NCBI GenBank assembly: GCA_043810345.1
Contig: JBDROF010000006.1
Coordinates: forward strand, 6,603-70,602
Direction: 5' to 3'
DNA: 64,000 nucleotides
DNA from: Bacteroidota bacterium
GTDB lineage: Bacteria; Bacteroidota; Bacteroidia; Bacteroidales; FEN-979
A program made the translations under genes and the position numbers. Positions 3,697 through 60,120 of this stretch are shown piece after piece. The notes under the pieces were generated by a model. That model did no database searches. It was not told where the DNA came from and worked only from the letters and a program-made list of their open reading frames with translations. Within the stretch, counting starts at the first letter, position 1; every line of letters begins with the position of its first letter.

Positions 3697-3748
3697 CCCT
3701 TGTAAATTAAACGAAGGCAACATTCACCTTTGTTGAAAAAAAGAGATT

Positions 3749-43648: not shown

Positions 43649-44374
43649 ATGCCAGCAAAGATCAGATTACAGAGAAGGGGTAAAAAGGGACAACCTTTTT
43701 ATCACATTATGATTGCGGATGGTCGTGCACCACGTGACGGAAGATTCATTGAAAAAATTGGCTATTACAATCCTCTGACCAAACCTGCAGAGATTGAGAT
43801 CAATTTTGAGAGCGCCCTTTACTGGTTGCAGAAGGGAGCACAACCCACGGATACGGTCAGAGCCATCCTCTCCTACAAAGGAGTTATGTACAAAAACCAC
43901 CTGCTGAAAGGAGTTCAGAAGGGAGCGTTGACACCCGAACAGGTTGAAGAGAAGTTCCAGGTATGGCTCTCGGAAAAGGAGGCCAGGATCAACTCGAAAA
44001 AGAATGAACAGGAGCTGAGTCTCAAAGAGGCGCACAAAGCTGCCCTCGACCATGAGAAAAAGGTAAACGAAACCAAAGCCCAGGCTCTGGCAAAGAAATA
44101 TGCCAAGGCAAAGAAAGCAGCTGAAGGAGAAGCCGAAGAAGAGGGTCCTGCTGCGAAAGAGGGAGCCACGGAGGTGACCGGGTCTGTAGCGGAACCTGCG
44201 GCCGGAGAGGTGACTGAGGAGGGTGCAAAAGCTGAAGAACCAGCTCCAGAAGAGGAACCAACCCAAGAAGAACCGACCGAAGAAGAACCAACCGGGGAAG
44301 AACCAACCGTGGAAGAACCAACCGTAGAAGAACCAACCGTGGAAGAACCAAAGAAAGAGGAACCGTTGCCGTAA
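43649..44374 (+). CDS. rpsP: 30S ribosomal protein S16 with acidic repeat tail
   Basis: [42 protein letters not shown]. The C-terminal half is Lys/Ala/Glu-rich and ends in EEPTx pentapeptide repeats. Confidence 0.9.
44252..44356 (+). repeat. 7 x 15-bp coding repeat (GAAGAACCAACCnnn; EEPTx) in the rpsP tail
   Basis: Read directly. In frame. Confidence 0.9.
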
Positions 44375-44392
44375 CCCTTGAACTTTGGAGAT

Positions 44393-44917
44393 ATGAATCC
44401 GGATGATTTCTACTACCTGGGGAAGATACTGAAAAGACATGGGAATCATGGTCATTTGATGGCACTCCTCGAAGTGGACGACGCCAGGGATTACCAACAT
44501 CTGAAATCCGTTTATGTCGATGTGTCACATGAACGGATTCCTTTTTTTATTGAATCGGTGGAATTGTTGGAAAAGAAAAAGATACTCCTGAAAATTCAGG
44601 ATGTGTCCACCCCTGATCACGCCGATGCCTTTGCAGGACGTGAGTTGTATCTGCCCCTCTCCTCCCTCCCTGAACTGGAGGGAAACCGATTCTATTACCA
44701 TGAAGTGAAAGGATTCCTCATCATCGACGAGGTGTTTGGTGAATTGGGGATCATCGAAGATATCCTGGAACTGCCCCGGCAGTCCCTGTTTCAGATCAGA
44801 TATCAACATAAAGAGATCCTCATCCCGGTGGTTGATGAAGTGATCCGGGAGGTCAGCCGGGCTAACCAGACCATTTACATCCGTGCACCGGAGGGATTAA
44901 TTGACCTTTATCTTTAG
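44393..44917 (+). CDS. rimM: ribosome maturation factor RimM
   Basis: Directly follows rpsP. YLGKILKRHGNHGHL...FYYHEVKGF... has the RimM/PRC-barrel pattern. The first ATG is chosen over the upstream TTG. Confidence 0.85.
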   Translation: MNPDDFYYLGKILKRHGNHGHLMALLEVDDARDYQHLKSVYVDVSHERIPFFIESVELLEKKKILLKIQDVSTPDHADAFAGRELYLPLSSLPELEGNRFYYHEVKGFLIIDEVFGELGIIEDILELPRQSLFQIRYQHKEILIPVVDEVIREVSRANQTIYIRAPEGLIDLYL

Positions 44918-44936
44918 GAAATAAACAGAATCCATG

Positions 44937-44944
44937 TAACTTTG
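44937..44944 (+). promoter_or_regulatory. Bacteroidota-type -7 promoter box (gdhA)
   Basis: TAACTTTG, 42 nt before the ATG at 44986. Confidence 0.45.
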
Positions 44945-44985
44945 CACACGATTTGTTAATTAATTCACAATATAATCGAAGTAAC

Positions 44986-46323
44986 ATGAACATTGAAAAG
45001 ATCATGCACGACCTGGAGAAGAAGAATCCGGGTGAAGTGGAGTACTTACAAGCTGTCAGAGAGGTATTGGAGTCCATCGAGGAGATCTATAACGAAAATC
45101 CCCAGTTTGAATCCGGCAACATCATCGATCGGATCATTGATCCTGACCGGATCTATACGTTCAAGGTAAGCTGGGTTGGCGATAACGGGAAAGTGCATGT
45201 GAATCGAGGCTATCGCATACAGTTCAACAACGCAATTGGACCGTATAAAGGGGGATTGCGGTTTCACCCAAGTGTGAACCTGAGCATCCTGAAGTTTCTT
45301 GGCTTCGAACAGGTCTTCAAGAACAGTCTGACCACCCTTCCGATGGGCGGAGCCAAAGGGGGTTCAGATTTTGATCCCAAAGGGAAATCCAACGGGGAGA
45401 TCATGCGTTTCTGCCAGGGATTCATGCTGGAACTCTGGAAGATCATTGGCCCTGAGACTGATGTCCCTGCCGGAGATATTGGTGTGGGTGGCAGAGAGAT
45501 CGGCTTCCTCTACGGAATGTATAAAAAACTGGCCAGAGAGAACTCCGGTGTGCTGACGGGCAAAGGGCTGAATTGGGGTGGAAGCCTGATCCGTCCGGAA
45601 GCAACCGGTTTCGGAACCGTCTACTTTGCCAATGAGATGCTGAATACCAAAGGAGACTCCCTTACAGGCAAAATCGTGGCCCTCTCGGGGTTCGGAAACG
45701 TGGCGTGGGGTGCTGCAATAAAAGCAACCGAACTGGGAGCAAATGTTGTAACGATCTCCGGCCCTGACGGATATGTCTATGATCCCGATGGCATCACCGG
45801 TGAGAAGATCGATTACCTCCTGGATCTGAGAGCCTCCAACGAGGATATCGTGAAACCCTATACCTACGAATTCCCCACCGCCCAGTTCCACCAGGGAAAA
45901 CATCCCTGGGAAGTGCAGTGCGATATCGCCCTTCCCTGTGCCACACAGAATGAGTTGAACAAAGAGGATGCCCAGCATTTGATCAACAATGGAGTTTTGT
46001 GTGTTGCTGAGGGAGCAAATATGCCCAGTACGCCGGAAGCCGTTGAGCTGTTCCTTGAGAATAAGGTGCTGTTTGCGCCCGGGAAAGCAGTCAACGCCGG
46101 TGGCGTGTCTACATCGGGACTCGAAATGTCACAAAATGCGATGAAGCTCAGTTGGCCGTTAACCGAGGTTGACAGCCGCCTGCAGCAAATTATGAGCAGC
46201 ATCCACGAGCAGTGTGTGAAGCATGGAACCGACCCCGACGGCTATGTAAATTATGTCAAAGGAGCCAACGTAGCCGGATTCCTAAAGGTGGCAAACGCGA
46301 TGCTGGACCAGGGAATCATCTGA
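44986..46323 (+). CDS. gdhA: NADP-specific glutamate dehydrogenase
   Basis: KGGLRFHPSVNLSILKFLGFEQVFKNSLTTLPMGGAKGGSDFDPKGKS. The start is at MNIEKIM, and a TAacTTTG box lies about 42 nt upstream. Confidence 0.95.
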   Translation: MNIEKIMHDLEKKNPGEVEYLQAVREVLESIEEIYNENPQFESGNIIDRIIDPDRIYTFKVSWVGDNGKVHVNRGYRIQFNNAIGPYKGGLRFHPSVNLSILKFLGFEQVFKNSLTTLPMGGAKGGSDFDPKGKSNGEIMRFCQGFMLELWKIIGPETDVPAGDIGVGGREIGFLYGMYKKLARENSGVLTGKGLNWGGSLIRPEATGFGTVYFANEMLNTKGDSLTGKIVALSGFGNVAWGAAIKATELGANVVTISGPDGYVYDPDGITGEKIDYLLDLRASNEDIVKPYTYEFPTAQFHQGKHPWEVQCDIALPCATQNELNKEDAQHLINNGVLCVAEGANMPSTPEAVELFLENKVLFAPGKAVNAGGVSTSGLEMSQNAMKLSWPLTEVDSRLQQIMSSIHEQCVKHGTDPDGYVNYVKGANVAGFLKVANAMLDQGII

Positions 46324-48395
46324 TGGCCTTCGTCTCTCCATTATTCCTCTATGGCCTCTTTGCCCTGGCGATCCCGATCCTGATCCACCTGATCAACTTC
46401 AGGCGGTACAGGAAGATCTGGTTTACCAATGTCAGGTTCCTGGCGGAGATTAAACAGGAGAGCCGGAAACGGTCCCGGCTCAAGCAATGGATCCTGCTGG
46501 CAACCAGGTTGCTGACCATCACCTCCCTGGTCATTGCGTTCGCCCAACCCTACATTCCCTCTCCCCTGCAACCCGAAAAACCACAACAACAACAGGGGGT
46601 CAGCATTTTCGTGGATAATTCGTTCAGCATGGATGCCGTGGGAAGTGAAGGAAAACTTATGGAGACAGCCAAAGCAAAAGCCAGGGAAATTGTGGAGGCT
46701 TACAAACCCTCTGACCGCTTCCAGTTACTCACCAATGATTTTGAAGGAGCCCATCAGCACCTTGTTTCCCGCGATGAGTTTCTGAAATTGCTGGAAGAGG
46801 TCCGGATCTCGCCAGCCTCCCGGAAAATCTCCCAGGTGGTATCGAGACAACAGGACCTTCTTGCAACCTCCCCCCACCTCTCCCGGAATATCTTCCTTAT
46901 TTCGGATTTCCAGGAGGTGACGAGTGATTTCGATCACCTCACTCCCGATACCTCCGCATCCTTTTTTATCCTGCCGCTTGCAGCCAATCGTACCGGGAAC
47001 CTGTACATTGACACGGCCTACTTTGAGTCGGCCGTGCAGCAGCCCGATCAACTTTCGCACCTGCGGGTTCGCATCAGAAATACGGGGTCAGACCGGCTGG
47101 AGAAGATCCCGGTGAAACTGGTGATCAATAACCGGCAAAAGGCGCTAGCCAGCGCCGGAATCGATCCCGGATCGGAAACGGAACTGATCCTTCCCTTTAC
47201 CAACAACAGGAGCGGGATCCAGTCAGGGTACCTGGAGCTCCCTGATTATCCGATTGTTTATGACGACCGGTGTTACCTCAGTTACCCACTTGTTACCACC
47301 GTTTCAATCCTCTGCATCAACCAGGAGGGCGAGAATCCTTACCTGAATGCCCTCTTTGGGAGCGATTCGGCGTTCCATTTTGTAAACGCCGGGGTGAACC
47401 GGCTCAACTACTCTTCTTTCGGTGGCTATTCCCTGATCATCCTGAACCAGGTAAACCGTATTTCATCCGGACTGGCCCAGGAACTTACGCGGTTTACCCT
47501 CAACGGAGGAAGTCTGCTGGTCATTCTGCCGGTGGAGATCGACCAGGCTGATTACAGGGGGTTTTTCCATGCCCTTGGAATCCCGGAACCAGAGGATGCA
47601 GATACAGCTCTGCTCCGGGTTTCGCAAATCCGCGTGGAAAGCCAGGTCTACAAGGACGTATTTGAACCAAATGCATCGGGCAGGATTGAACTACCCGCTA
47701 ACGCCGATCTTCCCGTGGTCAGCCTGCACTACCCGCTACATCTGACTACCGCCTCCAGGATAGAGCCTTTGCTGCTATTGCAAAACGGTGATGTGCTGCT
47801 GGCCAGGGCGCCCCACGGAAAAGGGGAGGTGTACCTGTTGACCTCTCCTCTTGAACTACGTAATTCAAGCCTGCCGGGACATCTCCTGTTTGTCCCCACC
47901 TTTTATAAAATCGCTTTACTAAGCCAGCCACGCAGCGATCTCTATTATTTTACCGCAACGAACAAGCCGGTTGAAGTACCTGCTGATACGCTTCAGCATG
48001 ACCTGGTGTTCCGGATCGTAAAGCAGGATTCCGAATTGGTGATCATTCCCGAACTGAGATTCGTGGAGGGAAGAATGCTTCTCTATCCCCATGACCAGAT
48101 CCGGGAAGCCGGCCTCTTCACCCTCTATCTCGGGGAGAAGCCCCTGACCGGTCTTGCCTTCAACTTTCCGCGTACTGAATCTGATCTTCACTGCCTGGAT
48201 CCGGTATCTATCCGGGAGATCCTGGAACGTAAAGAAATCAGATCCTTTGTCCTGCTGCAGGCCGACCACCCTTCGCTGACGAAGGAGATCCGGGAGGCCG
48301 GGCGGGGAAAACCACTCTGGAAACTTTTCATCCTGATCGCCCTCTTCCTTCTCGCTCTGGAGATAGTCATTATTAGACTGTTTCCGAAACAATAG
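46323..48395 (+). CDS. BatA-domain / vWA-like membrane protein
   Basis: MAFVSPLFLYGLFALAIPILIHLINFRR is the N-terminal double-TM 'aerotolerance' BatA motif. A C-terminal TM helix is present. The ATG overlaps the gdhA TGA (TGATG). Confidence 0.75.
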   Translation: MAFVSPLFLYGLFALAIPILIHLINFRRYRKIWFTNVRFLAEIKQESRKRSRLKQWILLATRLLTITSLVIAFAQPYIPSPLQPEKPQQQQGVSIFVDNSFSMDAVGSEGKLMETAKAKAREIVEAYKPSDRFQLLTNDFEGAHQHLVSRDEFLKLLEEVRISPASRKISQVVSRQQDLLATSPHLSRNIFLISDFQEVTSDFDHLTPDTSASFFILPLAANRTGNLYIDTAYFESAVQQPDQLSHLRVRIRNTGSDRLEKIPVKLVINNRQKALASAGIDPGSETELILPFTNNRSGIQSGYLELPDYPIVYDDRCYLSYPLVTTVSILCINQEGENPYLNALFGSDSAFHFVNAGVNRLNYSSFGGYSLIILNQVNRISSGLAQELTRFTLNGGSLLVILPVEIDQADYRGFFHALGIPEPEDADTALLRVSQIRVESQVYKDVFEPNASGRIELPANADLPVVSLHYPLHLTTASRIEPLLLLQNGDVLLARAPHGKGEVYLLTSPLELRNSSLPGHLLFVPTFYKIALLSQPRSDLYYFTATNKPVEVPADTLQHDLVFRIVKQDSELVIIPELRFVEGRMLLYPHDQIREAGLFTLYLGEKPLTGLAFNFPRTESDLHCLDPVSIREILERKEIRSFVLLQADHPSLTKEIREAGRGKPLWKLFILIALFLLALEIVIIRLFPKQ

Positions 48396-48412
48396 TGTCA
48401 AAAAAACGTACA
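48396..48412. promoter_or_regulatory. second, imperfect activator site
   Basis: TGTC-AAAAAAACG-TACA (TGTC-N9-TACA). Its centre is 21 bp from the perfect site. Confidence 0.45.
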
Positions 48413-48415
48413 CTA

Positions 48416-48434
48416 GTGTCAAAATATTTGACAC
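48416..48434. promoter_or_regulatory. palindromic upstream activator site (putative EBP binding site)
   Basis: GTGTCAAA-ATA-TTTGACAC has perfect 8-bp arms. The reverse-complement copy lies at 60164-60182. Confidence 0.6.
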
Positions 48435-48454
48435 CTTTAGGTGCTTCCTAAAGG
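48434..48454 (+). terminator. hairpin after the BatA-like gene
   Basis: CCTTTAGG-tgctt-CCTAAAGG, an 8-bp stem 39 nt after the stop, followed by A/T-rich sequence. It lies between the activator sites and the -24/-12 element. Confidence 0.35.
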
Positions 48455-48497
48455 GAAATTATTTTATATCTATCTGTTATACAGATATTTATAATTT

Positions 48498-48513
48498 TGG
48501 TACAATATTTGCA
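48498..48513 (+). promoter_or_regulatory. sigma-54 (-24/-12) promoter of the RiPP operon
   Basis: TGGTAC-aatat-TTGCA compared with the consensus TGGCAC-N5-TTGCW. GG-to-GC spacing is exact, and the precursor ATG is 58 nt downstream. Confidence 0.7.
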
Positions 48514-48570
48514 GTATGGCTAAGTCCATAAGGAAGCAAATAAAAAATATCAATATTAAATTCTAACGCC

Positions 48571-48780
48571 ATGAAAACGTTAAGCATCATCAACCTGCAC
48601 AAAGCCGAGATCAAGAAGAATCTGTTAGCAAAAATCAGAGGTGGAGAAGAAATTAAATGTTTTTGCACGGCGACTAATCCTTACGTCGTCATAAAAAAGC
48701 AGGGCGGTAGCACCAAGCTTTGCTATTGTGATGAAGTAACCACCAGCACTGCAGGCGTTTACAGCAGCACACCGGATTAA
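48571..48780 (+). CDS. RiPP precursor peptide, double-glycine leader, Cys-rich core (GG-Bacteroidales-type)
   Basis: 69 aa. The 25-aa leader MKTLSIINLHKAEIKKNLLAKIRGG is followed by a 44-aa core with CFC and CYC motifs. It sits immediately upstream of the rSAM maturase and downstream of a -24/-12 promoter. Confidence 0.8.
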   Translation: MKTLSIINLHKAEIKKNLLAKIRGGEEIKCFCTATNPYVVIKKQGGSTKLCYCDEVTTSTAGVYSSTPD

Positions 48781-48847
48781 TTCCTAAAAGTGTTACCTTT
48801 GCCACTACCCGAAATGGGCAGGTGTGTAACATGATGTCCAAAGACTG

Positions 48848-50362
48848 ATGAAAAATGCGGTTTTCTTTACATCAGGCAAAGGTAACTGTTATCTGTACAG
48901 CCCGTACAGAAACCAGCTCCGGCTTTGTCATCCTCTGATTCATCACTTTTTTTCTCTCGAAAAAAAAGGCACGAACCTCGGCCGGTGGATCACAACCATT
49001 CAGAAAAATAGAAATCTTACCATTCAGGGAATGGGGACATTCTCCCACTCAGAAGTCAATTATCAGCTGGAAAAATACCGGTTCCTGAAACGAAATGGGT
49101 TCCTGAAACAGGCCAGGGATATCAACATTGAAGGAAGGCTGAAGGCCTCCGATGTGAAGAAAAATATAACCTCCGTCAAGCAGCTCATTTTTGAAGTGAC
49201 GGAAGATTGCAACCTAAACTGCACCTACTGCACCTACAGCAAATATTACATCAACAAAGAGAGACACAACAGCTATTTGTCATTCGGAAATGTCCGGCAT
49301 ACGTTAACGGAGCTGATCTCCAAACGCACCACCTCCCCATCAAACCACCTCATCGTCAGTTTCTACGGAGGCGAACCACTGAAAAATTTCGAACTCATCA
49401 AATCGGTGGTGGAATTTACCGGCAGCTATCCGAAAGATCAGATCTCCTTTACCTACTCCCTCTCCAGCAATGGTCTTTTATTGAAAAAATACATCGCTTT
49501 TCTGGTCGAACATGCCTTTGAGCTCTCCGTTAGCCTCGATGGAGATGAAATAGCCAATTCGTTCCGGGTAACGAAGAACAATAAACCATCGTTTGACATG
49601 GTAACCAAAAACCTCGACTACGTCAGGACACACTATCCCGAATATTTCGAAAAAAACATCAGTTTCCTGACCGTGTTGCATAACCGGAACTCGATCAAAT
49701 CCGTGTTCGAATTCTTCCAGGAACGGTATGGAAAGGTGCCGCAAATGTCGGATGTCAATCCAATCAATCTTAACCCATTGCACGAAAGAGAGTTCCGGGA
49801 GAAGTTGCGATCAAAACCGATCACACCGCAGGAAGAGAAAGAGACCATCAAACAGATGGAGAACAGGCATCCGAAGGTCAGGGAGCTGGCCAAGGTCCTG
49901 GAATATTACTCTGGTTTCGTGTTTAAGAACTACCTGGAGATGATCTCTCCAAAACGGGGAAAGGTCTCTTCCAAAAAGTATATACCAACGGCCACCTGTA
50001 CCCCCTTCTCCATCCGGGCCTATTTTTCGGCCGACGGTACCGTTCTTCCCTGTGAGCATATCAGTCCGTTTTATGGGATCGGCTCCTATTCCGACCACCG
50101 TCTATCCCTTGATCCCGCAGGTATGGCCAGCCTCTACAACAACTATTACGATAAGATCTCCCGGTACTGCAGAAAATGTTATTTCATCGATAACTGCCAG
50201 GAATGTCTCTTCAATACCGGGGTGGAGACAGACCATCCATCCTGCTCATTCTACACCACAGAGACCGGATTCAAGGAGTACCTGAAGAAGCATTACTCCA
50301 ACATTGAGAACGATTATAAGTTTTACCGGAAAACCGCTCAAACCACTTTCTATGAAGGATAA
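48848..50362 (+). CDS. radical SAM/SPASM peptide maturase
   Basis: CNLNCTYC (CX3CX2C) within EVTEDCNLNCTYCTYSKYY. The C-terminal auxiliary-cluster motifs are CTPFSIRAYFSADGTVLPC and CRKCYFIDNCQEC. Confidence 0.9.
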   Translation: MKNAVFFTSGKGNCYLYSPYRNQLRLCHPLIHHFFSLEKKGTNLGRWITTIQKNRNLTIQGMGTFSHSEVNYQLEKYRFLKRNGFLKQARDINIEGRLKASDVKKNITSVKQLIFEVTEDCNLNCTYCTYSKYYINKERHNSYLSFGNVRHTLTELISKRTTSPSNHLIVSFYGGEPLKNFELIKSVVEFTGSYPKDQISFTYSLSSNGLLLKKYIAFLVEHAFELSVSLDGDEIANSFRVTKNNKPSFDMVTKNLDYVRTHYPEYFEKNISFLTVLHNRNSIKSVFEFFQERYGKVPQMSDVNPINLNPLHEREFREKLRSKPITPQEEKETIKQMENRHPKVRELAKVLEYYSGFVFKNYLEMISPKRGKVSSKKYIPTATCTPFSIRAYFSADGTVLPCEHISPFYGIGSYSDHRLSLDPAGMASLYNNYYDKISRYCRKCYFIDNCQECLFNTGVETDHPSCSFYTTETGFKEYLKKHYSNIENDYKFYRKTAQTTFYEG

Positions 50363-51632
50363 TCCTCCATGGCTGTTTCTGGAACCTTATGTACATATGC
50401 TTCACCGGGAGGGAGCCCTTCTTCTATACAATACCATCAGTAAAACCGTGTTGGAGTTCAGCAACTCCCGGGAGCTATCCAAACTTGCAGACGAACTGCT
50501 GGACCCTGACAATGGATATGTGGTCCCCCTGTCTGCCAGTCAGCTTCAGGATCCAGAAGTCCAGGATTTCCTCCACCAGGTCAGGCAACACTTCATGGGA
50601 GATCTCCTCGATCCCTCCTGGTCGGAGTGCAAACCGGTCAACATTGTTCCTGAGCCCTTTGTCAAGCATGGTCTCAGGCCTGTTCCCATACAGAAATCCC
50701 CCCTGAAACCCGGCCTGGAGGTCCGCAATTATTTACAGGAACTCACCCTCTTTTTGAATGCCGGAACCGAACCATCATCCGGTCCATCCGCCAGCGCATA
50801 CCTTCAGTTCTCATACCCCTCCTTAGTTTCAGATAAAGAGGAACAGATGGAGCTTCCCCTCTTCCGTGCGATGATCGATGATGTCAATCTTTATACGCCA
50901 ACGCTGATCCACATCTCCGGTATGAACCTGCTTGCCTATCCCCATTTGGAAGAGGTGATCAGAAAACTGGCATCCAGCCCTTTTCAAAAGAAATATCACC
51001 TCCTTATCGATCACTGGGAGGAACGGATCATCCCTTTTATCCTGGCTCAGAAACAGACTACCCTCGCCCTCTACATCACGTTCCCCTCCCATCCGGAACC
51101 CATCGCCGGGTATCTGCAGAGCCTCCCGGCTCGGAAACTCCTGAAGAGACTGGAGTTCAACTTATTGGTCAGCAACCAGGAGGAGCTGCAGATGGCGCAG
51201 GAAACCGTCAGGATGCTCGACCTTACCAACGTCTATTTCAAGCCTGTCTATAACGGGGAAAATCTTGATTTCTTCAGGCAGCATGTGTTTGTTTCCAGGG
51301 AGGAGATTCTGGCTTCACAACCAGATCAACGGGAGGTGTTCTCCAGGATCTCGATCAACGAAAACGATTTCGGAAAACTCTCTGTTTTCCCCGCAGGGGA
51401 AGCCTATGCCAATTTGAATGATCCCATGATCGGAGAGGCGACAAAGAGCTCCCTGGTTCAGCTGGTCACCCAGGAACTGGACAGGGGAATCAGCTGGCGA
51501 CGAACCCGCGCCGGCGTCACTCCTTGCAACGGGTGTCTCTATCAGTTCCTGTGTCCTCCCATCAGCTCCTATGAGATTTTTCTGAAGCGGTTTAATTTCT
51601 GCGATGTCCATCCAAACGGGAAAGAGTCATGA
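50352..51632 (+). CDS. pseudo-radical-SAM partner protein (no CX3CX2C; SPASM-like C-terminus)
   Basis: The ATG overlaps the maturase by 11 nt. Length and layout resemble the maturase, but the Cys triad position reads ELTLFLNAGTEPSS. C-terminal PCNGCLYQFLCPP...FNFC. Confidence 0.75.
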   Translation: MKDNPPWLFLEPYVHMLHREGALLLYNTISKTVLEFSNSRELSKLADELLDPDNGYVVPLSASQLQDPEVQDFLHQVRQHFMGDLLDPSWSECKPVNIVPEPFVKHGLRPVPIQKSPLKPGLEVRNYLQELTLFLNAGTEPSSGPSASAYLQFSYPSLVSDKEEQMELPLFRAMIDDVNLYTPTLIHISGMNLLAYPHLEEVIRKLASSPFQKKYHLLIDHWEERIIPFILAQKQTTLALYITFPSHPEPIAGYLQSLPARKLLKRLEFNLLVSNQEELQMAQETVRMLDLTNVYFKPVYNGENLDFFRQHVFVSREEILASQPDQREVFSRISINENDFGKLSVFPAGEAYANLNDPMIGEATKSSLVQLVTQELDRGISWRRTRAGVTPCNGCLYQFLCPPISSYEIFLKRFNFCDVHPNGKES

Positions 51633-54016
51633 ACTGGAACTCATTGGTAACCTCTTACCGATTCATGATGAAGAGTAGAATCTTCACCGCCATCAACCTG
51701 ATCGGGCTGACGGCCGGGTTGACGGTCTCCTTTTTCCTGCTGATCTACATCATCAATGAATTAAGTTACAACTCCTTTCATGCCAGAAGCGACCGGATCT
51801 ACCGCATCATCACGCAAACCGAAAAGAATACCATCCCCTTGTCCCCTTCCCTTCTTCCGGCCAGGCTTCAGGAGCAATCCGAGGGTATTTTACAGGCAGG
51901 TGGCATGGTTGAAGTCCAATTCTTAACGGGTCCGGTAAGGGTTAAAAAAGGGCAAAATTACCACGAGGAACCTGGATTTTTCTGTGCCGATCCGGCGGTT
52001 CTGGATATCCTCAGCTTCAACATTGCCGGCGGTGAAGGAGGTGCAGGATTACACAAGGCAGGATCCGTCATGCTTTCACGACCTGTTGCCCTGAAATATT
52101 TTGACCAGGCGGATCCAATCGGGCAGAAGTTGGAGATTAAATCCGGTGGAGTCCCCGTTTCCTTAACCGTTTCCGGTATTTTTGAAAAGCTGCCCTGGAA
52201 CTCCACCATGGAAGTTGACTTTATTGCCGGGATGGATCTTTTCCATTTCCTGCTGAATGAGTTTGGCATTGACCTGGAAACAGAGACGGTGAATTATGCG
52301 GATTTTTATGCAGAAAACTATATTCTGGTTGACCGTCGTGGGAGAATACCTGAACTGATGGATCAGCTCCCATCGCTTCTGGATACCCTGGGACTCACCG
52401 CGCGGAAGATTGCTTTTTCTTTTCAGAACATCCAGGACATTCATCTCGATTCGGAGGAGATTACAAACGATTTCCACCAGAAGGGAACCCGGTCGGCTCT
52501 CTTCTATTATGGCTCACTGGCCTTTGCCATCTTACTGCTTGCCGGCATCAACTACTCTATCCTCAGTACCGCCCGTTCGGCCTTGCGATTTAAGGAGATC
52601 GGGGTCAGGAAGGTCCTGGGAGCTACCAAACGGGAATTACGGATTCAGGTACTCGCCGAATCGATGTTGCTGACCTTTTTGGCCCTGCCCCTCGCTTTTC
52701 TGGTGCTGGGGTTCATTGAGCCCTTTGCCGACCGGTTATATGGGTATGAGATCCAGCTATACACCTGGAACATGCTGATTTACATTCCCCTCTTCGCTGT
52801 CATCACCCTGCTTATCGGATTGACCTCCGGAGGCTATCTTGCCTTTTACCTTTCGGCCCTGAATCCATTGAAAGCTATTAAAAACCAGGTATTTACACGT
52901 CAGCGCTTCAGCCTGAGCAAAGGGTTCATTGTGCTTCAACTGCTGATCACCCTGTTCCTGCTGGGGTGTGTGCTGATCATCTTTGCCCAGCTCGATTATT
53001 GCCTGAATACAAACAGTGGCATACAGAAGAGAGAGCTGTTGATCGTTTCATTCGATCCGGCAGAGTTTCATTTCTACCCCGAGCTTCGTGACCGGATTCA
53101 GGAAGAAGAGGCCGTCGTGTCTGTCTCGGGCAGTTCCATCATTCCTCCCACCAACGCCAGTTCGTTCATCTCGTTTACCATCTCATCCCCCGGTTCATTG
53201 TCAGAAACAGTCCTACTGGAGAATTATTATGTGGACAGAGACTTTTTCACCACCCTTGGTATCGGGATGGTATCAGGTGAAGATATCAGACCGGCAGGGG
53301 GTACCCAATCCGAAGTACCCGTTATTCTCAACCAGGAGGCCAAAGCGCTGCTGGGTCTCGAGCAACCGGTGGGGACCTCTCTTGGTAAAAGCATCGTCAC
53401 GGGAGTGGTCAGGGATTTCAACATCCACTCTTTTCATTCGAAAATTTTACCGGCAGTATTCACCTACAATCCCTCCGAGTGCAGTTACCTGGTGGTCAGA
53501 TGCCAGCCGGGAGCTTTAAAAAAGGCACGTCAACTAGTAGAGAAACACTGGCTTGCGCTGGCACCTGATCTTCCGTTTGCCAGTGCCACATTCGATGATG
53601 AACTGAATCTGATGTACTCCACGGAGCAGAAATTTGGTCAGGTGGTAGCCTCCTTCTCCTTTCTGGCCTTCATCATCACGGGGATGGGTCTTTTTGGTCT
53701 TGCCCTCCTGATGATCGAGCGCCGGTTGAAAGAGATTGCCGTCAGGAAGATCTTCGGCGCCTCGAACCACGACATCCTGTTCCGGGTGCAAAAAGAGTTT
53801 CTGCTGTATATCCTGCTGGCATCAGTGGTTGCCATCCCGGTAACCTGGTATATCATGAACAGCTGGTTATCTTCTTTCTACTATAAAGTTCCGGTACACT
53901 GGTACCTCTTTTTGATTGCCGTCCTGTCCATCACTATTTTTGTATCCTCGATCATCATGATCAGGACCTGGGCTGTTCTGCGTAAGAACCTGATCAACGT
54001 GTTGAGATATGAGTAG
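51629..54016 (+). CDS. ABC transporter permease, FtsX/MacB type (duplicated)
   Basis: 795 aa with a 4-nt overlap upstream. The N-terminal TM helix and periplasmic domain are repeated twice, with FtsX-like TM bundles (...RKVLGATKRELR..., ...RKIFGASNHDIL...). Confidence 0.85.
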   Translation: MNWNSLVTSYRFMMKSRIFTAINLIGLTAGLTVSFFLLIYIINELSYNSFHARSDRIYRIITQTEKNTIPLSPSLLPARLQEQSEGILQAGGMVEVQFLTGPVRVKKGQNYHEEPGFFCADPAVLDILSFNIAGGEGGAGLHKAGSVMLSRPVALKYFDQADPIGQKLEIKSGGVPVSLTVSGIFEKLPWNSTMEVDFIAGMDLFHFLLNEFGIDLETETVNYADFYAENYILVDRRGRIPELMDQLPSLLDTLGLTARKIAFSFQNIQDIHLDSEEITNDFHQKGTRSALFYYGSLAFAILLLAGINYSILSTARSALRFKEIGVRKVLGATKRELRIQVLAESMLLTFLALPLAFLVLGFIEPFADRLYGYEIQLYTWNMLIYIPLFAVITLLIGLTSGGYLAFYLSALNPLKAIKNQVFTRQRFSLSKGFIVLQLLITLFLLGCVLIIFAQLDYCLNTNSGIQKRELLIVSFDPAEFHFYPELRDRIQEEEAVVSVSGSSIIPPTNASSFISFTISSPGSLSETVLLENYYVDRDFFTTLGIGMVSGEDIRPAGGTQSEVPVILNQEAKALLGLEQPVGTSLGKSIVTGVVRDFNIHSFHSKILPAVFTYNPSECSYLVVRCQPGALKKARQLVEKHWLALAPDLPFASATFDDELNLMYSTEQKFGQVVASFSFLAFIITGMGLFGLALLMIERRLKEIAVRKIFGASNHDILFRVQKEFLLYILLASVVAIPVTWYIMNSWLSSFYYKVPVHWYLFLIAVLSITIFVSSIIMIRTWAVLRKNLINVLRYE

Positions 54017-56213
54017 GTTCCCATTTTCACGGCAACTCGATTCCATGGATTGCGGTCCTGCCTGCCTCCAGATGGTCGCCCGTTTTCATGGGAAGAACTA
54101 CTCCCTCTCCACCCTCCGCGACCTCTGTCATATCACCCGCGATGGGGTCACCATGCTGGGGATCAGTGATGCTGCTGAAGCCACCGGATACCATACCCTC
54201 GGTGTAAAGATCAGTTTCGGCGAGCTCCTCGCGGAAGCTCCCCTCCCCTGCATCCTTCACTGGCAACAGAATCACTTCGTGGTGTTGTACCGGGTGAAAG
54301 AAAAGCATGGGAAGAAAAAGCTCTTCATCGCAGATCCGGCCATCGGGAGAGTGAAATACAGTGAGGAGGAGTTTTTGAAAAGATGGCTCTCGGAGGTGAA
54401 ACCGGAGGAAGAACAGAAAGGGATATGCCTGCTTCTGGAACCCACGGAAGCGTTTCATTCAAAGAGGGATGAAGAGACCGGGATGTCGCGCCTCCGGTTC
54501 ATCTTCAGCTACCTGAAACCCCACCGGAAACTCTTCTCACAGCTGGTGCTGGGCATGCTGCTCGGAAGCCTCTTCATGCTGATCTTCCCCTTCCTCACAC
54601 AGTCGATCATCGATGTGGGGATCCAGAACCAGGACCTGAGCTTCATCTTCCTGGTACTGCTGGCCATGATGGCTCTCTTTCTCGGCCAGATCTCAGTGGA
54701 GTTCATCCGGGGGTGGATCCTCCTGCACATCAGTACCCGGATCAACATCTCATTGATCTCCGACTTCCTGATCAAGATCATGAGGCTGCCCATCGGTTTC
54801 TTTGACACCAAACGAACCGGCGACCTGATCCAGCGCATTCTCGACCACGACCGGATACAGTCCTTTCTCACTGTCAGTTCACTCAGCATTCTCTTTTCCA
54901 TCGTGAACTTCATCATCTTCGGACTGGTTCTCCTGGCTTACAACTCCACAATCTTTCTGGTTTTTATAGCGGGCAGCATGCTCTATGGCCTCTGGGTTTA
55001 CCTGTTCATGAACCGCAGGAAAGAGCTCGATTACGCCCGTTTCTCCTACATGGCTGAAAATCAGGGGAACCTCTTTCAACTGGTAACCGCCATGCAGGAG
55101 ATCAAACTGAACAATTGTGAAAGGGAGAAACGATGGGATTGGGAACGGATCCAGGCCAAACTCTTCCGGGTGAGTTTAAGGAGCCTCTCCCTGACACAGT
55201 ACCAGAATGTGGGAGCCCTGTTTTTCATTCGTACCAAAGACATTGTGATCATTTTCTTATCTGCCTCACTGGTATTGAAAGGGGAACTTACCCTGGGGAT
55301 GATGCTGGCTATCCAGTACATCCTCGGACAGGTCAACAACCCGGTGGAACAGATGGTCAACTTCATCCGGGAAGCACAGGATGCCACCATCAGCATGTCC
55401 CGTCTGGATGAGGTAAGCTCCCTGAAAGAGGAAGAGGGGCCGGACGACCATCTTGTGAAGAGCATCCCGCCGGATCATGGTATCCGCATCTGCCAGCTCT
55501 CTTTTCAGTACGAGGGACCTCATTCCCCCTTCGTTTTGAAAGATCTGAATCTGGTCATCCCCGATCAGAAAATCACCGCCATTGTCGGGCCAAGCGGTAG
55601 CGGGAAGACCACGCTGATCAAGCTGATGCTGGGCTTCTATCCACCTGTAAGGGGAACGATCTCTGTGGGAGACCTGCCTCTGCAACACATCTCTCCGCAG
55701 TACTGGCGTACCCTTTGCGGTGCGGTCATGCAGGAGGGATTTATCTTTTCCGACTCCATTGCCAGCAACATTGCCATGAGCCTGGAACAGGTGGAGCCGG
55801 AAAAGTTTTCCCGGGCGATCAGGATCGCCAACCTGACTGAATTCGTAGATTCGCTGCCTACCGGCCTCCGGACCAAGATCGGATCCGAGGGACACGGGAT
55901 CAGCGAAGGGCAAAAACAACGGGTCCTGATCGCCCGGGCGGTCTATAAAGATCCTGAATTCATCTTCTTCGACGAAGCTACTAACTCCCTGGATGCCAAT
56001 AATGAGATGATGATCATCGAAAATCTGAAGGAATTTTTTGCCGGGAAAACGGTGGTGGTGGTAGCGCACCGGCTAAGCACAGTGAAAAATGCCGACCAGA
56101 TTGTAGTGCTCGATCAGGGCTGTATCCTGGAGCAGGGCACTCACCACGAGCTCACCAGTCTCCGTGGGGCTTATTATGAATTGGTTAAAAATCAACTTGA
56201 ACTTGGATATTAA
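54009..56213 (+). CDS. peptidase C39 domain-containing ABC exporter (double-glycine leader cleavage/export)
   Basis: QLDSMDCGPACLQMV (catalytic Cys), HWQQNHFVVLY (His), 6-TM ABC domain, Walker A GPSGSGKTT, signature SEGQKQR, and Walker B IFFDEAT. Confidence 0.9.
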   Translation: MSRFPFSRQLDSMDCGPACLQMVARFHGKNYSLSTLRDLCHITRDGVTMLGISDAAEATGYHTLGVKISFGELLAEAPLPCILHWQQNHFVVLYRVKEKHGKKKLFIADPAIGRVKYSEEEFLKRWLSEVKPEEEQKGICLLLEPTEAFHSKRDEETGMSRLRFIFSYLKPHRKLFSQLVLGMLLGSLFMLIFPFLTQSIIDVGIQNQDLSFIFLVLLAMMALFLGQISVEFIRGWILLHISTRINISLISDFLIKIMRLPIGFFDTKRTGDLIQRILDHDRIQSFLTVSSLSILFSIVNFIIFGLVLLAYNSTIFLVFIAGSMLYGLWVYLFMNRRKELDYARFSYMAENQGNLFQLVTAMQEIKLNNCEREKRWDWERIQAKLFRVSLRSLSLTQYQNVGALFFIRTKDIVIIFLSASLVLKGELTLGMMLAIQYILGQVNNPVEQMVNFIREAQDATISMSRLDEVSSLKEEEGPDDHLVKSIPPDHGIRICQLSFQYEGPHSPFVLKDLNLVIPDQKITAIVGPSGSGKTTLIKLMLGFYPPVRGTISVGDLPLQHISPQYWRTLCGAVMQEGFIFSDSIASNIAMSLEQVEPEKFSRAIRIANLTEFVDSLPTGLRTKIGSEGHGISEGQKQRVLIARAVYKDPEFIFFDEATNSLDANNEMMIIENLKEFFAGKTVVVVAHRLSTVKNADQIVVLDQGCILEQGTHHELTSLRGAYYELVKNQLELGY

Positions 56214-56214: not shown

Positions 56215-56718
56215 ATGACCCAACAACCAACCGATCAGGAAAAATACAGCCGGGAAGTGGAAGAGATATTGCACAAACGACCTGCCTTGCTGGTTCGCAA
56301 GGGAATCCTCCTGCTCACCATCCTTGTCATCCTCCTCCTGGTGGGTTCCCATTTCATTAAGTACCCCGAGAAACTGACTGCCTCGGTCACGTTCGACACC
56401 GTTGCCGTCCACGATTCGATCCTCCTTCAGGGCCGGATCATCCTGACCTCGGCAGCGGCCTCCATCGTGAAGCCGGGACAACCGGTTGTGATGCTCCTGC
56501 GTACGACTCCAGAAAGCACGCCCGTTGACGTAACCGGAACCATAGAAGCCCTGCTTCCTATGGGCCGGGGCGACTATTACACTGTGCTGGTTCAGCCCGA
56601 TACCCAGACTGAGCTTTTAGGGCATGAAGGTACGGCCAGCATTTTGATAGGTGAAACAAATCTGCTGACCCAAATATTAAATCCGGTTTTTGCAGTATTC
56701 CGATCTGCTGACCAATAG
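56215..56718 (+). CDS. truncated HlyD-family adaptor-like protein (167 aa)
   Basis: The N-terminus SREVEEILHKRPALLVRKGILLLTILVILLLVGSHFIKYPEKLTASV matches the HlyD-type anchor. The C-terminal beta-domain-like part is present, but there is no room for the coiled-coil hairpin. Confidence 0.55.
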   Translation: MTQQPTDQEKYSREVEEILHKRPALLVRKGILLLTILVILLLVGSHFIKYPEKLTASVTFDTVAVHDSILLQGRIILTSAAASIVKPGQPVVMLLRTTPESTPVDVTGTIEALLPMGRGDYYTVLVQPDTQTELLGHEGTASILIGETNLLTQILNPVFAVFRSADQ

Positions 56719-56730: not shown

Positions 56731-57402
56731 ATGATAATAATCAAAGAATTGACGAAAGTGTTCCAGGCGGAGGATGTCCAGACGATGGCCCTGAACCAGG
56801 TGGATTTTGAGGTCGCGGAAGGCGAGTTCGTAGCGATCATGGGCCCGTCAGGATGTGGAAAATCTACCCTGCTCAACATCATAGGGATGTTGGACGAGCC
56901 CAACAGCGGCCAATATGAATTCCTGAACCATAACATCTTCGAGCTGCCAGAAAAAGAGCGAACCGCCATACGGAAAAAGAACATCGGTTTTGTTTTTCAG
57001 AATTTCAACCTGATCGACGAATTGACCATATTCGAGAATGTTGAGCTGCCACTGATCTACCTGGGAGTACCTGCACCCGAACGCAAAGTGAAGGTGATTG
57101 AAATGCTGGAAGAACTGGAGATGGCTCACCGGAAAAAATATTTCCCCATGCAACTTTCGGGAGGGCAGCAGCAACGGATTGCTGTGGCCCGGGCGCTGGT
57201 TGTGAACCCCGCTCTCCTGCTCGCAGATGAACCCACGGGTAACCTCGACTCCCTCCATGGAGATGAGGTGATGAACCTCTTCATCAAGCTCAATGATGCC
57301 GGTACCACCATTGTGATGGTAACCCACTCGGCTCGGGATGCCGAATACAGCACACGCATCGTTAACCTGTTCGACGGGCAGATCGTATCGGAGAGGTATT
57401 AA
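56731..57402 (+). CDS. ABC transporter ATP-binding protein (MacB/LolD type)
   Basis: Walker A GPSGCGKST, LSGGQQQR, Walker B LLADEPTGNLD. Confidence 0.9.
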   Translation: MIIIKELTKVFQAEDVQTMALNQVDFEVAEGEFVAIMGPSGCGKSTLLNIIGMLDEPNSGQYEFLNHNIFELPEKERTAIRKKNIGFVFQNFNLIDELTIFENVELPLIYLGVPAPERKVKVIEMLEELEMAHRKKYFPMQLSGGQQQRIAVARALVVNPALLLADEPTGNLDSLHGDEVMNLFIKLNDAGTTIVMVTHSARDAEYSTRIVNLFDGQIVSERY

Positions 57403-58748
57403 ATCCTGATCGTAAACACCGTATTTCCTGGCGACGACTGCACCGTCATGCTGCCGCCGTGGAGCCTGATGATCTGGCGGGAGAGGCTGAGGCCTATGCC
57501 TGAACCCGACTGTTTGGTGGTGAAGAAAGGAACAAAGATATCATCTATCAACTCCGGGGGAATCCCGTTCCCGTTATCGGAGACCTGGATTATCAGTTGA
57601 TCCTGTGCCGAGTGTGCAGCCAGTTCTACCACCGGGGATTCTGCCTCGTCAAGGGCCTCTGATGCATTTTTAACGAGATTGATCAGTACCTGCTCCAGCA
57701 ACGAGCCATCGGCATTGATAAAAATGGAAGGATGGCAGTTGATCCGGAGGTCAATTCCACCGACTGCAAGTTGAGATTCGAAGAGGTGTAATACCCGTTG
57801 CAGAAGGTCCTTGACATTGACAATCTTGAAGTCGGGTTTAGGTAAACGGGTAATGCTGCGGTAGTTCTGCACGAAACTGATCAACCCTTTCCCACGGGAA
57901 TCAATCAGGTCCAGCCCTTTTACTGTCCGGGCCATTATATCATGGGTGACCTCAGCAGGCTCTATCAACTCCGGTTTGTCTCTGCGCCGGAGTTTCTTCA
58001 CGATGCTTCCTACCAGGGTGACGATCGGAGTCATTGAATTCATGATCTCATGGGTCAATACCCGGATCAGACGTTGCCACGATTCGATCTCCTTCTCTTC
58101 CAATTCAGGCTTGATATTCTGAAAAGAGACCAGGTGCAACTCTTCATTCATCGTCCGGAACTTGACCTTTTTGGTAGCCAGCTGGATCAGCTCACCTTCC
58201 AGGATCAGGGAGATCAGTTTCCGGTCGTTCGATGCCAGGTTGATCAGCATCTCGCTGAATCCATCCTTGATGTTGTTCAACTTCCTGAGGTTTCGCAATA
58301 CCTGCATCCCAAATATCTTTTTGGCTGCCTCGTTGAAGAGTTCCACCGAACCATCTGCCTTGAACGAAATCAATCCGACAGCCGTTTCGTCGACGATGGT
58401 TTTGAAGTAGTTGTTCTGTATCTCATTTTTCAGTCTCGCCTGCTCCAGTTTGTCGTTGATCAGGTCGAAATACATATAGAGCGGACTGAATTCATCCTTT
58501 TTGTTCCGGCGCACATTGGATGAGGTAACCTCACCACTGAGGTAAAAGAGAAAAAAGTTCTCGAGCTTCTTGTTGATGGAGTTCAGGTACCGGGTAAGCA
58601 TGACCACCTGGTAAATGAAGAGGGCTCCGAGGGCTATGATGACGGAATAGTTAGGATGGATAAAGAAAGAAAGGCACAGCAGGAAACAGGACAGTGAGAT
58701 AAGTACCAAACGGATGATCAGATGATAGAAATACCTTTTAGAGACCAT
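57399..58748 (-). CDS. membrane sensor histidine kinase (NtrB/ZraS-like), partner of the sigma-54 regulator
   Basis: Two N-terminal TM helices, a PAS-like region, H-box LTHEIMNSMTPI, then NLVKNASEA, DNGNGIP and GSGIGLSLSRQI. Confidence 0.85.
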   Translation of the reverse strand: MVSKRYFYHLIIRLVLISLSCFLLCLSFFIHPNYSVIIALGALFIYQVVMLTRYLNSINKKLENFFLFYLSGEVTSSNVRRNKKDEFSPLYMYFDLINDKLEQARLKNEIQNNYFKTIVDETAVGLISFKADGSVELFNEAAKKIFGMQVLRNLRKLNNIKDGFSEMLINLASNDRKLISLILEGELIQLATKKVKFRTMNEELHLVSFQNIKPELEEKEIESWQRLIRVLTHEIMNSMTPIVTLVGSIVKKLRRRDKPELIEPAEVTHDIMARTVKGLDLIDSRGKGLISFVQNYRSITRLPKPDFKIVNVKDLLQRVLHLFESQLAVGGIDLRINCHPSIFINADGSLLEQVLINLVKNASEALDEAESPVVELAAHSAQDQLIIQVSDNGNGIPPELIDDIFVPFFTTKQSGSGIGLSLSRQIIRLHGGSMTVQSSPGNTVFTIRI

Positions 58749-60120
58749 ACCGTTTCATTTTGTTATAAATGGTCTGCCTCGAGATACCCAGTTCCCGGGC
58801 AGCACTGGTCATGTTACCCATGTGCCGGAGGAGTGCTTTCCGTATGATCTCCTTTTCAAAATCACCGTAGGATCCGTTCATTTCGGCTGGTTGCATCGGT
58901 TGCCCGGGCATTTTCTTCAGGTAAAGGTCCTCCGGCCTCACTGTATTCCCTTCAGCCAGGATGACCGCCTTCTCAATGGAGTGCTCCAGCTCACGAATAT
59001 TTCCGGGCCAAACATAGGTTCTCATGGCCATCAGGGCATCCTTGGAAAATGCCAGTTTACCCCGGTCGTATTTGGCAGTGCACCGGTGCAGAAAATGGTT
59101 AGCCATCAGCTCGATATCACTTCCCCTTTCACGCAATGGGGGAAGATCGATCTGAATGGTATTGATCCGGAAGAGAAGATCCTGCCGGAACAATCCTTCC
59201 ATTACCAGTTTGTCGAGGTTTTTATTTGTGGCACAGATCAGGCGGATGTCGATGGGAATAATTTTATTGGATCCCAGCGGAATGATTTGCCGTTCCTGCA
59301 GAACGTTCATGACCTTCGCCTGCATATTCAAAGAAAAATTTCCAATCTCATCCAGGAAGAGGGTTCCTCCGGAGGCGGTTTCAAAGCGACCGATCCGGTC
59401 CTGCTTGGCATCAGTAAATGCCCCTTTCTTGTGGCCGAACATCTCACTTTCAAAGAGTGTCAGAGGAATGGAGGCCATATCAACGGTGATCATCGCTTCA
59501 TTTGAGCGGGATGAGCGTTTATGGATCTCCCTGGCAATCAACCCCTTGCCGGTCCCATTCTCTCCTGTGATCAGGATATTGACATCGGTTTTACTTACCT
59601 TCTCCACGATCTCCATCACCCGGCTCATCTGGGGGCACTGAACGATGATCTCGGAATACTGCTGATCCAGTTCGGCGGTCAGCTGATCCTGCCGGTTGCG
59701 GAGTTTCTCGATCTCCTTGGTCGACTCCCGGAGCTTTAAGGCTGTACGCAATGTTGCCAGGAGTTTATCATTATCCCATGGCTTGATGATGAAATCAACG
59801 GCACCATTCTTCATGGCCTTCACAGCAAGCTCTACATCTCCGTAAGCTGTCATCATGATGACACTCAAAGAAGGATCCACCTTCAGGATCTCTTTCAACC
59901 AGTAAAGACCTTCGTTTCCCGTCACCACCCCCGCCGAGAAATTCATATCCAGCAAAACCAGGTCAAAGGATTCATTCTTCAGGGTGCTGACGATCATGTT
60001 TGGTGTCTTCAATCCGGTAACCAGGGAAAACTCATCTTCCAGAAACAACTCCAGCGCTTCCAGGATCTCTTTGTTATCTTCAACGATGAGCAGGTTTCCA
60101 TTTTTCGACATATGGTACAA
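58738..60120 (-). CDS. sigma-54-dependent response regulator (NtrC-family enhancer-binding protein)
   Basis: REC (LLIVEDNKEIL...LVLLDMNF), AAA+ domain with GENGTGKG and the sigma-54 contact loop GAFTDA, and a C-terminal Fis-type HTH AARELGISRQTIYNKMKRYG. The start may instead be the ATG at 60111. Confidence 0.9.
   Translation of the reverse strand: MYHMSKNGNLLIVEDNKEILEALELFLEDEFSLVTGLKTPNMIVSTLKNESFDLVLLDMNFSAGVVTGNEGLYWLKEILKVDPSLSVIMMTAYGDVELAVKAMKNGAVDFIIKPWDNDKLLATLRTALKLRESTKEIEKLRNRQDQLTAELDQQYSEIIVQCPQMSRVMEIVEKVSKTDVNILITGENGTGKGLIAREIHKRSSRSNEAMITVDMASIPLTLFESEMFGHKKGAFTDAKQDRIGRFETASGGTLFLDEIGNFSLNMQAKVMNVLQERQIIPLGSNKIIPIDIRLICATNKNLDKLVMEGLFRQDLLFRINTIQIDLPPLRERGSDIELMANHFLHRCTAKYDRGKLAFSKDALMAMRTYVWPGNIRELEHSIEKAVILAEGNTVRPEDLYLKKMPGQPMQPAEMNGSYGDFEKEIIRKALLRHMGNMTSAARELGISRQTIYNKMKRYGL

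Follow-up and report, generated by a model that had tools for sequence, protein, structure and literature searches.

An operon encoding a peptide with two invariant CxC pairs and its putative radical-SAM/SPASM maturation in the Bacteroidales lineage FEN-979

The precursor gene and its operon

The stretch of DNA analysed here, referred to as the window, comprises 64,000 nucleotides of a Bacteroidota bacterium (Bacteroidales, FEN-979; GenBank assembly GCA_043810345.1, contig JBDROF010000006.1, positions 6,603 to 70,602 of the forward strand) and contains, at 48571-48780 on the plus strand, an open reading frame (ORF) for a putative modified-peptide precursor whose core carries two Cys-x-Cys (CxC) pairs. 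The precursor gene is the first of a same-strand operon and is followed by genes for a radical S-adenosylmethionine (radical-SAM)/SPASM peptide maturase, a pseudo-radical-SAM protein (pseudo-rSAM), a MacB-type pump and a C39-peptidase exporter. A preliminary description of this DNA had read the ORF as a precursor whose leader ends in GG and had brought radical-SAM/SPASM chemistry and a C39 protease into play; the gene content, with both kinds of enzyme encoded in the same operon, agrees with it. The order precursor, maturase, pseudo-rSAM, MacB/FtsX permease and C39 exporter is syntenic in related loci (L001-L029, L044), where the identity of the maturase falls to as little as 40%.

The ORF translates to MKTLSIINLHKAEIKKNLLAKIRGG as the leader and EEIKCFCTATNPYVVIKKQGGSTKLCYCDEVTTSTAGVYSSTPD as the core. 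The leader (residues 1-25, 48571-48645) ends at the Gly24-Gly25 cleavage motif, while the core (residues 26-69) takes up 48646-48780 together with the stop codon, its 44 codons lying at 48646-48777. C30, C32, C51 and C53 are the only cysteines of the precursor: C30-F-C32 (48658-48666) is followed by x3-[N/S/A]-P37, and C51-Y-C53 (48721-48729) begins 21 residues after C30. Between the two pairs lies Gly45-Gly46 (48703-48708), part of a Gly/Pro-rich loop or hinge, and Ser or Thr accounts for 7 of the last 13 residues. The translation reproduces exactly the sequence given earlier, with its 25-residue leader, 44-residue core, four cysteines spaced by 21 residues, internal KKQGG and Ser/Thr-rich tail. 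Four cysteines placed at random in 44 positions would form two CxC pairs with a chance of 0.6%, whereas the chance of an adjacent GG, given three glycines in 44 positions, is 13%.

Conservation of the precursor peptide

Homologues were collected in two ways: a protein search returned 21 precursor clusters with 60-100% identity to the window precursor, and a genome scan with the maturase alignment yielded 80 loci. Pooling of both searches gave 49 distinct precursors, whose source loci encode maturases 40-88% identical to that of the window; the precursor counts below refer to this set. The leader is nearly invariant, with Gly24 and Gly25 present throughout and hydrophobic residues at positions -4 (Ile/Val), -7 (Leu/Met) and -12 (Ile/Leu/Met) relative to the cut. 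In the core, C30, C32, P37, C51 and C53 are invariant (49/49), and the basic residue at position 29 (Lys/Arg/His), a hydrophobic residue at position 50 and Asn36 (38/49; Ser, Ala or Thr in the remaining 11) are nearly so, the rest being hypervariable. The distance from C30 to C51 ranges from 20 to 22 residues. Both motifs had been described as Cys-aromatic-Cys; the CxC pairs hold in every precursor, but the aromatic middle residue is not conserved, with Phe/Tyr in 29 of 49 first pairs (otherwise Ile, Ala, Asn, Thr or Val) and mostly Asn, Leu, Val or Ile in the second.

Leader and core also differ at the codon level. Between the window and five relatives, the leader codons show 4-9 synonymous versus 2-4 non-synonymous changes, while the core codons show 3-12 synonymous versus 15-24 non-synonymous changes. 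The peptide is therefore evidently translated and its core fast-evolving, which is the usual pattern for modified-peptide precursor genes.

The CxC motif extends well beyond this clade. In 28 distant double-glycine-leader cores, which adjoin more distant homologues of the maturase family TIGR04148 in Bacteroides, Rikenellaceae, Tenacibaculum, Aminicenantes, Clostridia and Desulfobacterales, 50 occurrences were counted against 10.1 +/- 2.9 in shuffled cores (2000 shuffles, maximum 21), a five-fold excess. At least one CxC is found in 26 of these 28 cores, and most have one to three matches when overlaps are counted. Together with the alignment of the 49 precursors, these counts mark the paired CxC residues, to which attention had been drawn before, as conserved and family-defining. 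The longer motif CxC-x3-[N/D/H]-P recurs in distant loci (L035, L036, L039, L067), those of Aminicenantes/Acidobacteriota among them. Bacteroides-type precursors (L043, L047, L054, L055, L057, L062, L069, L072) have in common the pattern CxCxC-x4-GG(S)S...N-x-N-A-N, and the internal GG of the window peptide may be a remnant of the CxCxC-x4-GG(S)S part. A Marinifilaceae locus (L041) encodes two double-glycine-leader precursors (2878-3060 and 3730-3903 of that locus) with Pro-rich, Cys-free cores, along with a TIGR04148-like maturase and a pseudo-rSAM.

The window peptide has no Pfam or NCBIfam match even at an E value of 10, and its family assignment was made through its homologues. The precursor family TIGR04149 is matched at E <= 10 by 20 of the 21 close homologues (best E 2.2e-6), and homologues 68-79% identical to the window peptide score 27.4, 27.3, 22.1 and 15.6 bits against a cutoff of 25. 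As these scores straddle the cutoff, the CxC...CxC clade lies at the edge of the TIGR04149 model; one homologue (P0007) carries the NCBI name of a TIGR04149 family member. A search of the PDB with the precursor profile returned no RumC1 entry but only non-significant matches to CENP-L and to the glutathione-dependent formaldehyde-activating enzyme (GFA), and a search with a Bacteroides-type precursor yielded nothing. The AlphaFold model of the window precursor has a predicted local distance difference test score (pLDDT) of 53.8, with low-confidence strands at residues 38-42, 48-53 and 61-64.

The maturase and the pseudo-rSAM partner

The maturase (48848-50362, plus strand) belongs to TIGR04148 (370.7 bits, cutoff 300; E 1.1e-110), and with the family assignments of its neighbours the window cassette is a further member of the TIGR04148/04149/04150 family, which is known bioinformatically and has no characterised product. 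Its radical-SAM motif C121-x3-C125-x2-C128 and seven SPASM cysteines (384, 402, 441, 444, 450, 453 and 466) are invariant. Seven SPASM cysteines have likewise been reported for the thioether-forming enzymes CteB, Tte1186 and QhpD (PMC10352776). Among the named NCBIfam models, the best relatives are CcpM, the lachnocin maturase, RumMC, the anaerobic sulfatase maturase, PapB and the SCIFF maturase, each with a score well under its own family cutoff. The match to the RumMC model (NF035951) runs over nearly the full length with 90 bits (cutoff 720; E 1.3e-25), and the PapB and SCIFF maturase models, with 83.7 bits (cutoff 340) and 80.8 bits (cutoff 425), give full-length or core-domain matches; YhhB, DynA and AmcB appear among the weaker ones. 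By sequence, the closest solved structure is CteB (5WGG, E 8e-16). The suggestion of Cys-centred thioethers in the preliminary description thus gains ground from these scores and from CteB, as the nearest characterised relatives of the maturase form Cys thioethers.

Residues 1-96 of the maturase (48848-49135) are matched only by the CxC...CxC clade and some non-Bacteroides relatives, and homologues of Bacteroides, Rikenellaceae and Prevotella type align from about residue 96 onward. This N-terminal domain of about 95 residues is clade-specific and presumably serves leader binding.

The pseudo-rSAM gene (50352-51632, plus strand; TIGR04150, 312.3 bits, cutoff 250) overlaps the stop codon of the maturase gene, and its counterparts follow the maturase in nearly all 80 loci. 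The protein has no CX3CX2C motif, yet in its C-terminal part C392-x2-C395-x5-C401-x15-C417 is conserved in at least 90% of 39 homologues, a motif with which it could still coordinate one Fe-S cluster or zinc. Its structure model (pLDDT 89.7) finds as top fold matches the RiPP (a peptide made on the ribosome and modified after its translation) maturases CteB (5WHY first), TigE, SuiB, SkfB and PqqE, all of them full-length maturases, and the N-terminal strands and helices look like a leader-recognition domain, similar to a RiPP recognition element (RRE). Only this fold search links the pseudo-rSAM to the maturase, since a profile-profile comparison of the two (hhalign) gave a non-significant probability of 0.2%. 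As a catalytically dead paralogue, the pseudo-rSAM probably serves as a scaffold or as a second subunit for leader binding; according to PMC10352776, no function of such proteins has been demonstrated by experiment.

The internal GG and the two halves of the core

We were curious to know whether the internal KKQGG could be a second C39 site, as had been proposed, so that two short peptides with one CxC unit each would be released. The GG is kept in 38 of the 49 precursors, and distant members with one, two or three CxC units give the motif a unit-like appearance. In contrast, 11 precursors have lost the GG (L016, L020-L024, L026, P0016, P0018-P0020), with the operon otherwise intact in every locus concerned: L016 retains a single Gly, all members of the L020-L024/L026 subclade have SP, AP or GP instead, and P0016 and P0018-P0020 have IG, AT, AG or a gap. 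The preliminary description had itself named the missing conservation of the GG as an outcome that would count against its idea, and the second cut fails by that standard. Double-glycine leaders recognised by C39 domains require a helix with hydrophobic residues at -4, -7 and -12. Ahead of the internal GG, position -4 is always polar (Gln, Lys, Glu or Thr), -7 is mostly Thr or Ser, -12 is mostly polar (Ser, Asn or Thr), and the invariant Pro37 falls at -10; therefore no leader-like helix precedes this site. With those leader-like residues absent, we judge a second C39 cut to be very unlikely. Moreover, additional peptide variety, where present, comes from tandem precursor genes (L002, L009, L022).

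The two halves are not repeats either. Local alignment of the core halves recovers CFC/CYC only (shuffle P = 0.096), and their in-register identity amounts to 2 of 21 positions, both Cys. An internal duplication of the core was therefore rejected, the halves being alike in the CxC alone, and the earlier notion of two half-modules is not supported in the sense of repeats; the missing repeat-like similarity also speaks against two separately released peptides. The halves may possibly be functional units rather than sequence repeats.

Comparison with known systems

A precedent for such functional halves is ruminococcin C, of which RumC1 is 44 residues long. Here C22/C24 and C41/C45 give rise to two hairpin domains, and a SPASM radical-SAM enzyme processes each half independently of the other into a nested hairpin (PMC6779426), which lends experimental precedent to the two-halves idea of the preliminary description. 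RumC1-5 are now classed as type II, double-hairpin sactipeptides, and the invariant C30/C32 and C51/C53 conform to the Cys-pair definition of that type (PMC10470295). Both systems have four core cysteines, arranged as an N-terminal CxC and a second pair in the C-terminal half. However, the second RumC pair is CX3C and not CxC, the RumC maturases (RumMC1/2) are two active radical-SAM enzymes with no pseudo-rSAM, and the RumC producer is Gram-positive. The RumC leader is removed by RumPc and then trypsin rather than by a GG/C39 route (PMC10470295), and the window maturase is homologous to RumMC but stands outside the RumMC family.

The cassette itself corresponds to the GG-Bacteroidales cassette (TIGR04149/04148/04150), known from Bacteroides genomes through genome mining alone (PMC4573289, PMC10352776). 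The window has the same three genes in the same order, a double-glycine leader, a C39 exporter and a CxC right after the leader. Its core reads CxC-x3-NP...loop...CxC, whereas that of the Bacteroides type reads CxCxC-x4-GGSS...NxNAN, and the window clade adds a MacB-type pump with an ATPase, the maturase N-terminal domain and a sigma-54-type promoter. Cassettes of this family are found widely among Bacteroidota, gut Bacteroides among them. For tests of their chemistry the window clade is conveniently simple: its four invariant cysteines make up two CxC pairs, there is a single precursor gene, and the operon is compact.

Other sactionine systems show comparable donor motifs. StsA has CxCxC-x4-GxGxG with three nested Cys-Gly sactionines, and BlaA has the bridges C13-G22 and C15-G20 (PMC10288494). 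There, nested S-C(alpha) bridges run from CxC or CxCxC donors to residues a few positions further on; the CxC is the point of likeness to the window peptide, and the CxCxC-x4-GGSS of the Bacteroides-type relatives resembles the StsA motif. In contrast, StsB and BlaB are MftC-like enzymes accompanied by an RRE as a protein of its own, and only Gly serves as acceptor; in the window peptide the GG comes 12 residues behind the CxC, and one subclade does without it. As in CteB, the SPASM motif of the window maturase has seven cysteines, and C32-x3-N36 has the i, i+4 spacing of the PapB motif CX3D. The six-Cys motif of SCIFF precursors and the repeated CX3D motifs of PapB-type precursors are, however, absent from the window precursor. 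Class II double-glycine bacteriocins, exported by PCAT1, ComA or LahT, have the same leader hydrophobics at -4, -7 and -12, the GG at -2/-1 and an intact C39 domain in the exporter; those peptides are unmodified or otherwise modified, whereas the window has a radical-SAM pair between precursor and exporter.

Proposed maturation and alternatives

It is well supported that the CxC pairs are targets of radical-SAM chemistry. Beyond this, we assign a probability of roughly one half to a maturation in which the CxC pairs donate thioether cross-links, each into its own half of the core, and the precursor is cut once after Gly25. The helical, conserved leader would be recognised by the radical-SAM/SPASM maturase, for which the pseudo-rSAM probably provides a scaffold or second leader-binding subunit. 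The four invariant cysteines would be the reactive residues, and each CxC would most likely form two sulfur-to-carbon thioethers with downstream residues of its own half. S-C(alpha) bridges seem favoured, with linkages to the beta- or gamma-carbon as the alternative. The outcome would be two nested hairpins as in ruminococcin C, with the Gly/Pro-rich loop as a hinge. The C39 exporter would then cut once after Gly25 and export a single 44-residue product, which the clade-specific MacB-type pump might pass onward, or against which it might protect the producer. Transcription would probably begin from a sigma-54 promoter controlled by the adjacent two-component system. If the double-hairpin model is true, the RumC-like sactipeptide architecture would extend to Gram-negative producers, and the pseudo-rSAM could be given a function.

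Several observations weigh against this proposal. Literature searches turned up no characterised product of any TIGR04148 system but genome-mining mentions only, with no product structure, cross-link type or bioactivity for TIGR04148/04149/04150 cassettes, and the thioether chemistry therefore rests on analogy. The maturase lies far below the cutoff of every characterised family (RumMC, PapB, SCIFF maturase), and the Cys-free cores of the Marinifilaceae locus indicate that TIGR04148-family enzymes need not all act on Cys. No acceptor residues are conserved beyond Pro37 and, partly, Asn36. The window precursor gives no match to TIGR04149 even at E <= 10, and its core shows no significant pairwise similarity to RumC1 (P = 0.29), for which we used a RumC1 sequence that reproduces the residue numbers printed in PMC6779426; higher RumC1 z-scores in some clade members come from colinear cysteines alone. 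The AlphaFold model of the precursor, at its pLDDT of 53.8, is too weak to infer Cys pairing.

A different view of the cysteines would be a disulfide hairpin ladder, C30-C53 and C32-C51, formed after export, comparable to the two-disulfide beta-hairpin of protegrin with its CxC...CxC. The maturase would then modify the peptide elsewhere, for instance through epimerisation or through a C-C or C-O cross-link involving the conserved Asn36-Pro37 or the aromatics. The hydrophobic/polar alternation around both CxC pairs and the strands of the low-confidence model would suit such a hairpin, and Pro37 is as invariant as the cysteines. Moreover, Cys-free cores exist in the family (L041), and SPASM enzymes also carry out non-thioether chemistry, with YhhB, DynA and AmcB among the weaker matches here. 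However, 12 of the 28 distant cores have an odd number of Cys, and obligate disulfide pairing is therefore unlikely; in addition, the top-scoring named maturase relatives act on Cys-rich peptides or form thioethers, and the seven-Cys SPASM pattern is the one reported for CteB, Tte1186 and QhpD. On balance we consider the ladder unlikely, though worth keeping in mind. Slightly more doubtful still appear ranthipeptide-type thioethers to non-alpha carbons, which would close small local rings in place of long nested hairpins, such as one from C32 to the Asn36 beta-carbon and one from C53 or C51 to Thr57 or Glu55. The recurrence of C32-x3-[N/D] followed by Pro, both in the clade (Asn36 in 38/49) and in distant phyla (L035, L036, L039), points in this direction, as do the full-length or core-domain matches to PapB and the SCIFF maturase and the position of CteB as the closest solved structure by sequence. 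PapB is reported to make Cys-Asp/Glu links in CX3D motifs (PMC9413430). Nevertheless, 11 of the 49 precursors have Ser, Ala or Thr in place of Asn36, no acidic residue, Asn or Thr is conserved at +4 from C30, C51 or C53, and the scores to the PapB and SCIFF maturase models are far under their cutoffs.

Quite improbable, in our opinion, is a metal-binding peptide, in which the CxC pairs would form a four-thiolate Zn, Cu or Fe site and the product would serve as a metallophore or sensor and not as a cross-linked toxin. What prompts the idea are weak matches of the core and of the homologues P0002 and P0009 to the zinc-binding N-terminal CxC region of GFA (1X6M, E 0.25; NF003829, E 0.0034 for two of 21 members), as well as the vertical inheritance of an operon fixed in the chromosome, uncommon in a bacteriocin island. 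Those enzyme matches are non-significant and rest on the Cys columns, odd Cys counts are common among the relatives, and a dedicated radical-SAM/SPASM maturase would be left unexplained.

Transporters and other operon genes

The MacB/FtsX-type ATP-binding cassette (ABC) permease (51629-54016, plus strand; Pfam MacB_PCD and FtsX) follows the pseudo-rSAM and is confined, among the loci compared, to the CxC...CxC clade (L001-L029, L044). In distant TIGR04148 loci the C39 exporter comes directly after the pseudo-rSAM, and no MacB-type permease is found between them. An ABC ATPase at 56731-57402 (plus strand; ABC_tran) is the likely partner of the permease; its best NCBIfam match is the DarD-type ATPase, with 271 bits below the cutoff of 375. 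Permease and ATPase together may provide a second export step or immunity.

The C39-peptidase ABC exporter (54009-56213, plus strand) combines Peptidase_C39 (120 bits), ABC_membrane and ABC_tran domains, and its C39 domain aligns with LahT150 (6MPZ), the catalytic Cys, His and Asp motifs being kept. Between exporter and ATPase lies a 167-residue ORF (56215-56718, plus strand) with no Pfam or NCBIfam match. Its equivalents measure 165 residues in L081 and 55 in L083, and none is present in L084. This ORF is not a conserved component and looks decaying or dispensable; possibly it is a remnant of a membrane-fusion protein.

Chromosomal position and regulation

The left flank of the operon (43649-48395 in the window) is syntenic throughout (L001-L029, L081-L084), with rpsP and rimM upstream and a BatA-like double-transmembrane protein of 690-730 residues directly before the operon; in the window and in L083 and L084 there is also gdh upstream. 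The arrangement is kept even at maturase identities of 40-45%. It follows that the operon occupies a fixed place in the chromosome and is inherited vertically, an uncommon situation for a bacteriocin-like cluster.

A sigma-54-type -24/-12 element, TGGTAC-N5-TTGC (48498-48512, plus strand), ends 58 nt before the ATG of the precursor gene. It is the sole match in the window, where 0.34 would be expected by chance, and in 19 related loci TGG[CT]A[CT]-N5-TTGC precedes the first precursor gene by 52-85 nt. Scans for generic sigma-70 promoters and for terminators gave chance-level results only. Farther upstream, the perfect palindrome GTGTCAAA-ATA-TTTGACAC (48415-48433) is a candidate site for a sigma-54 activator, with an additional GTGTCAA half-site 21 nt upstream of it (direct repeat 48389-48403/48410-48424). 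The palindrome stands at the same distance in L001-L004, L029 and L044, and half-sites are seen in more distant loci.

Candidate regulators are encoded on the minus strand at 57399-60120, namely a histidine kinase (57399-58748; HATPase_c) and a sigma-54-dependent response regulator (58738-60120) with a GAFTDA motif and a C-terminal helix-turn-helix. This convergent pair adjoins the operon in three distant relatives (L081/L082, L083 and L084) as well, while the genes beyond differ. We surmise that the pair may regulate the operon.

One could speculate that the clade represents, among Gram-negative bacteria, a counterpart to the double-hairpin sactipeptides, reached through an obligate combination of an active radical-SAM enzyme and a dead paralogue with an RRE-like N-terminus and a four-Cys motif. 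Since the operon is fixed in position, vertically inherited and apparently under sigma-54 control, its peptide might have a physiological or signalling role throughout the lineage instead of being a strain-level bacteriocin. We regard this combined proposal as unlikely.

An Rfam search of 48300-49000 returned nothing credible. A long-range RNA stem of 12 perfect pairs, with arms at 48792-48803 and 48875-48886 (48792-48886, plus strand), encloses the maturase start codon at 48848, and the region folds at -34 kcal/mol (z = -2.8). The stem is kept in seven loci despite its non-coding 5' arm; within these seven loci the long stem has no compensatory changes, whereas a small inner hairpin has some. 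The stem may set the ratio of precursor to enzyme expression.

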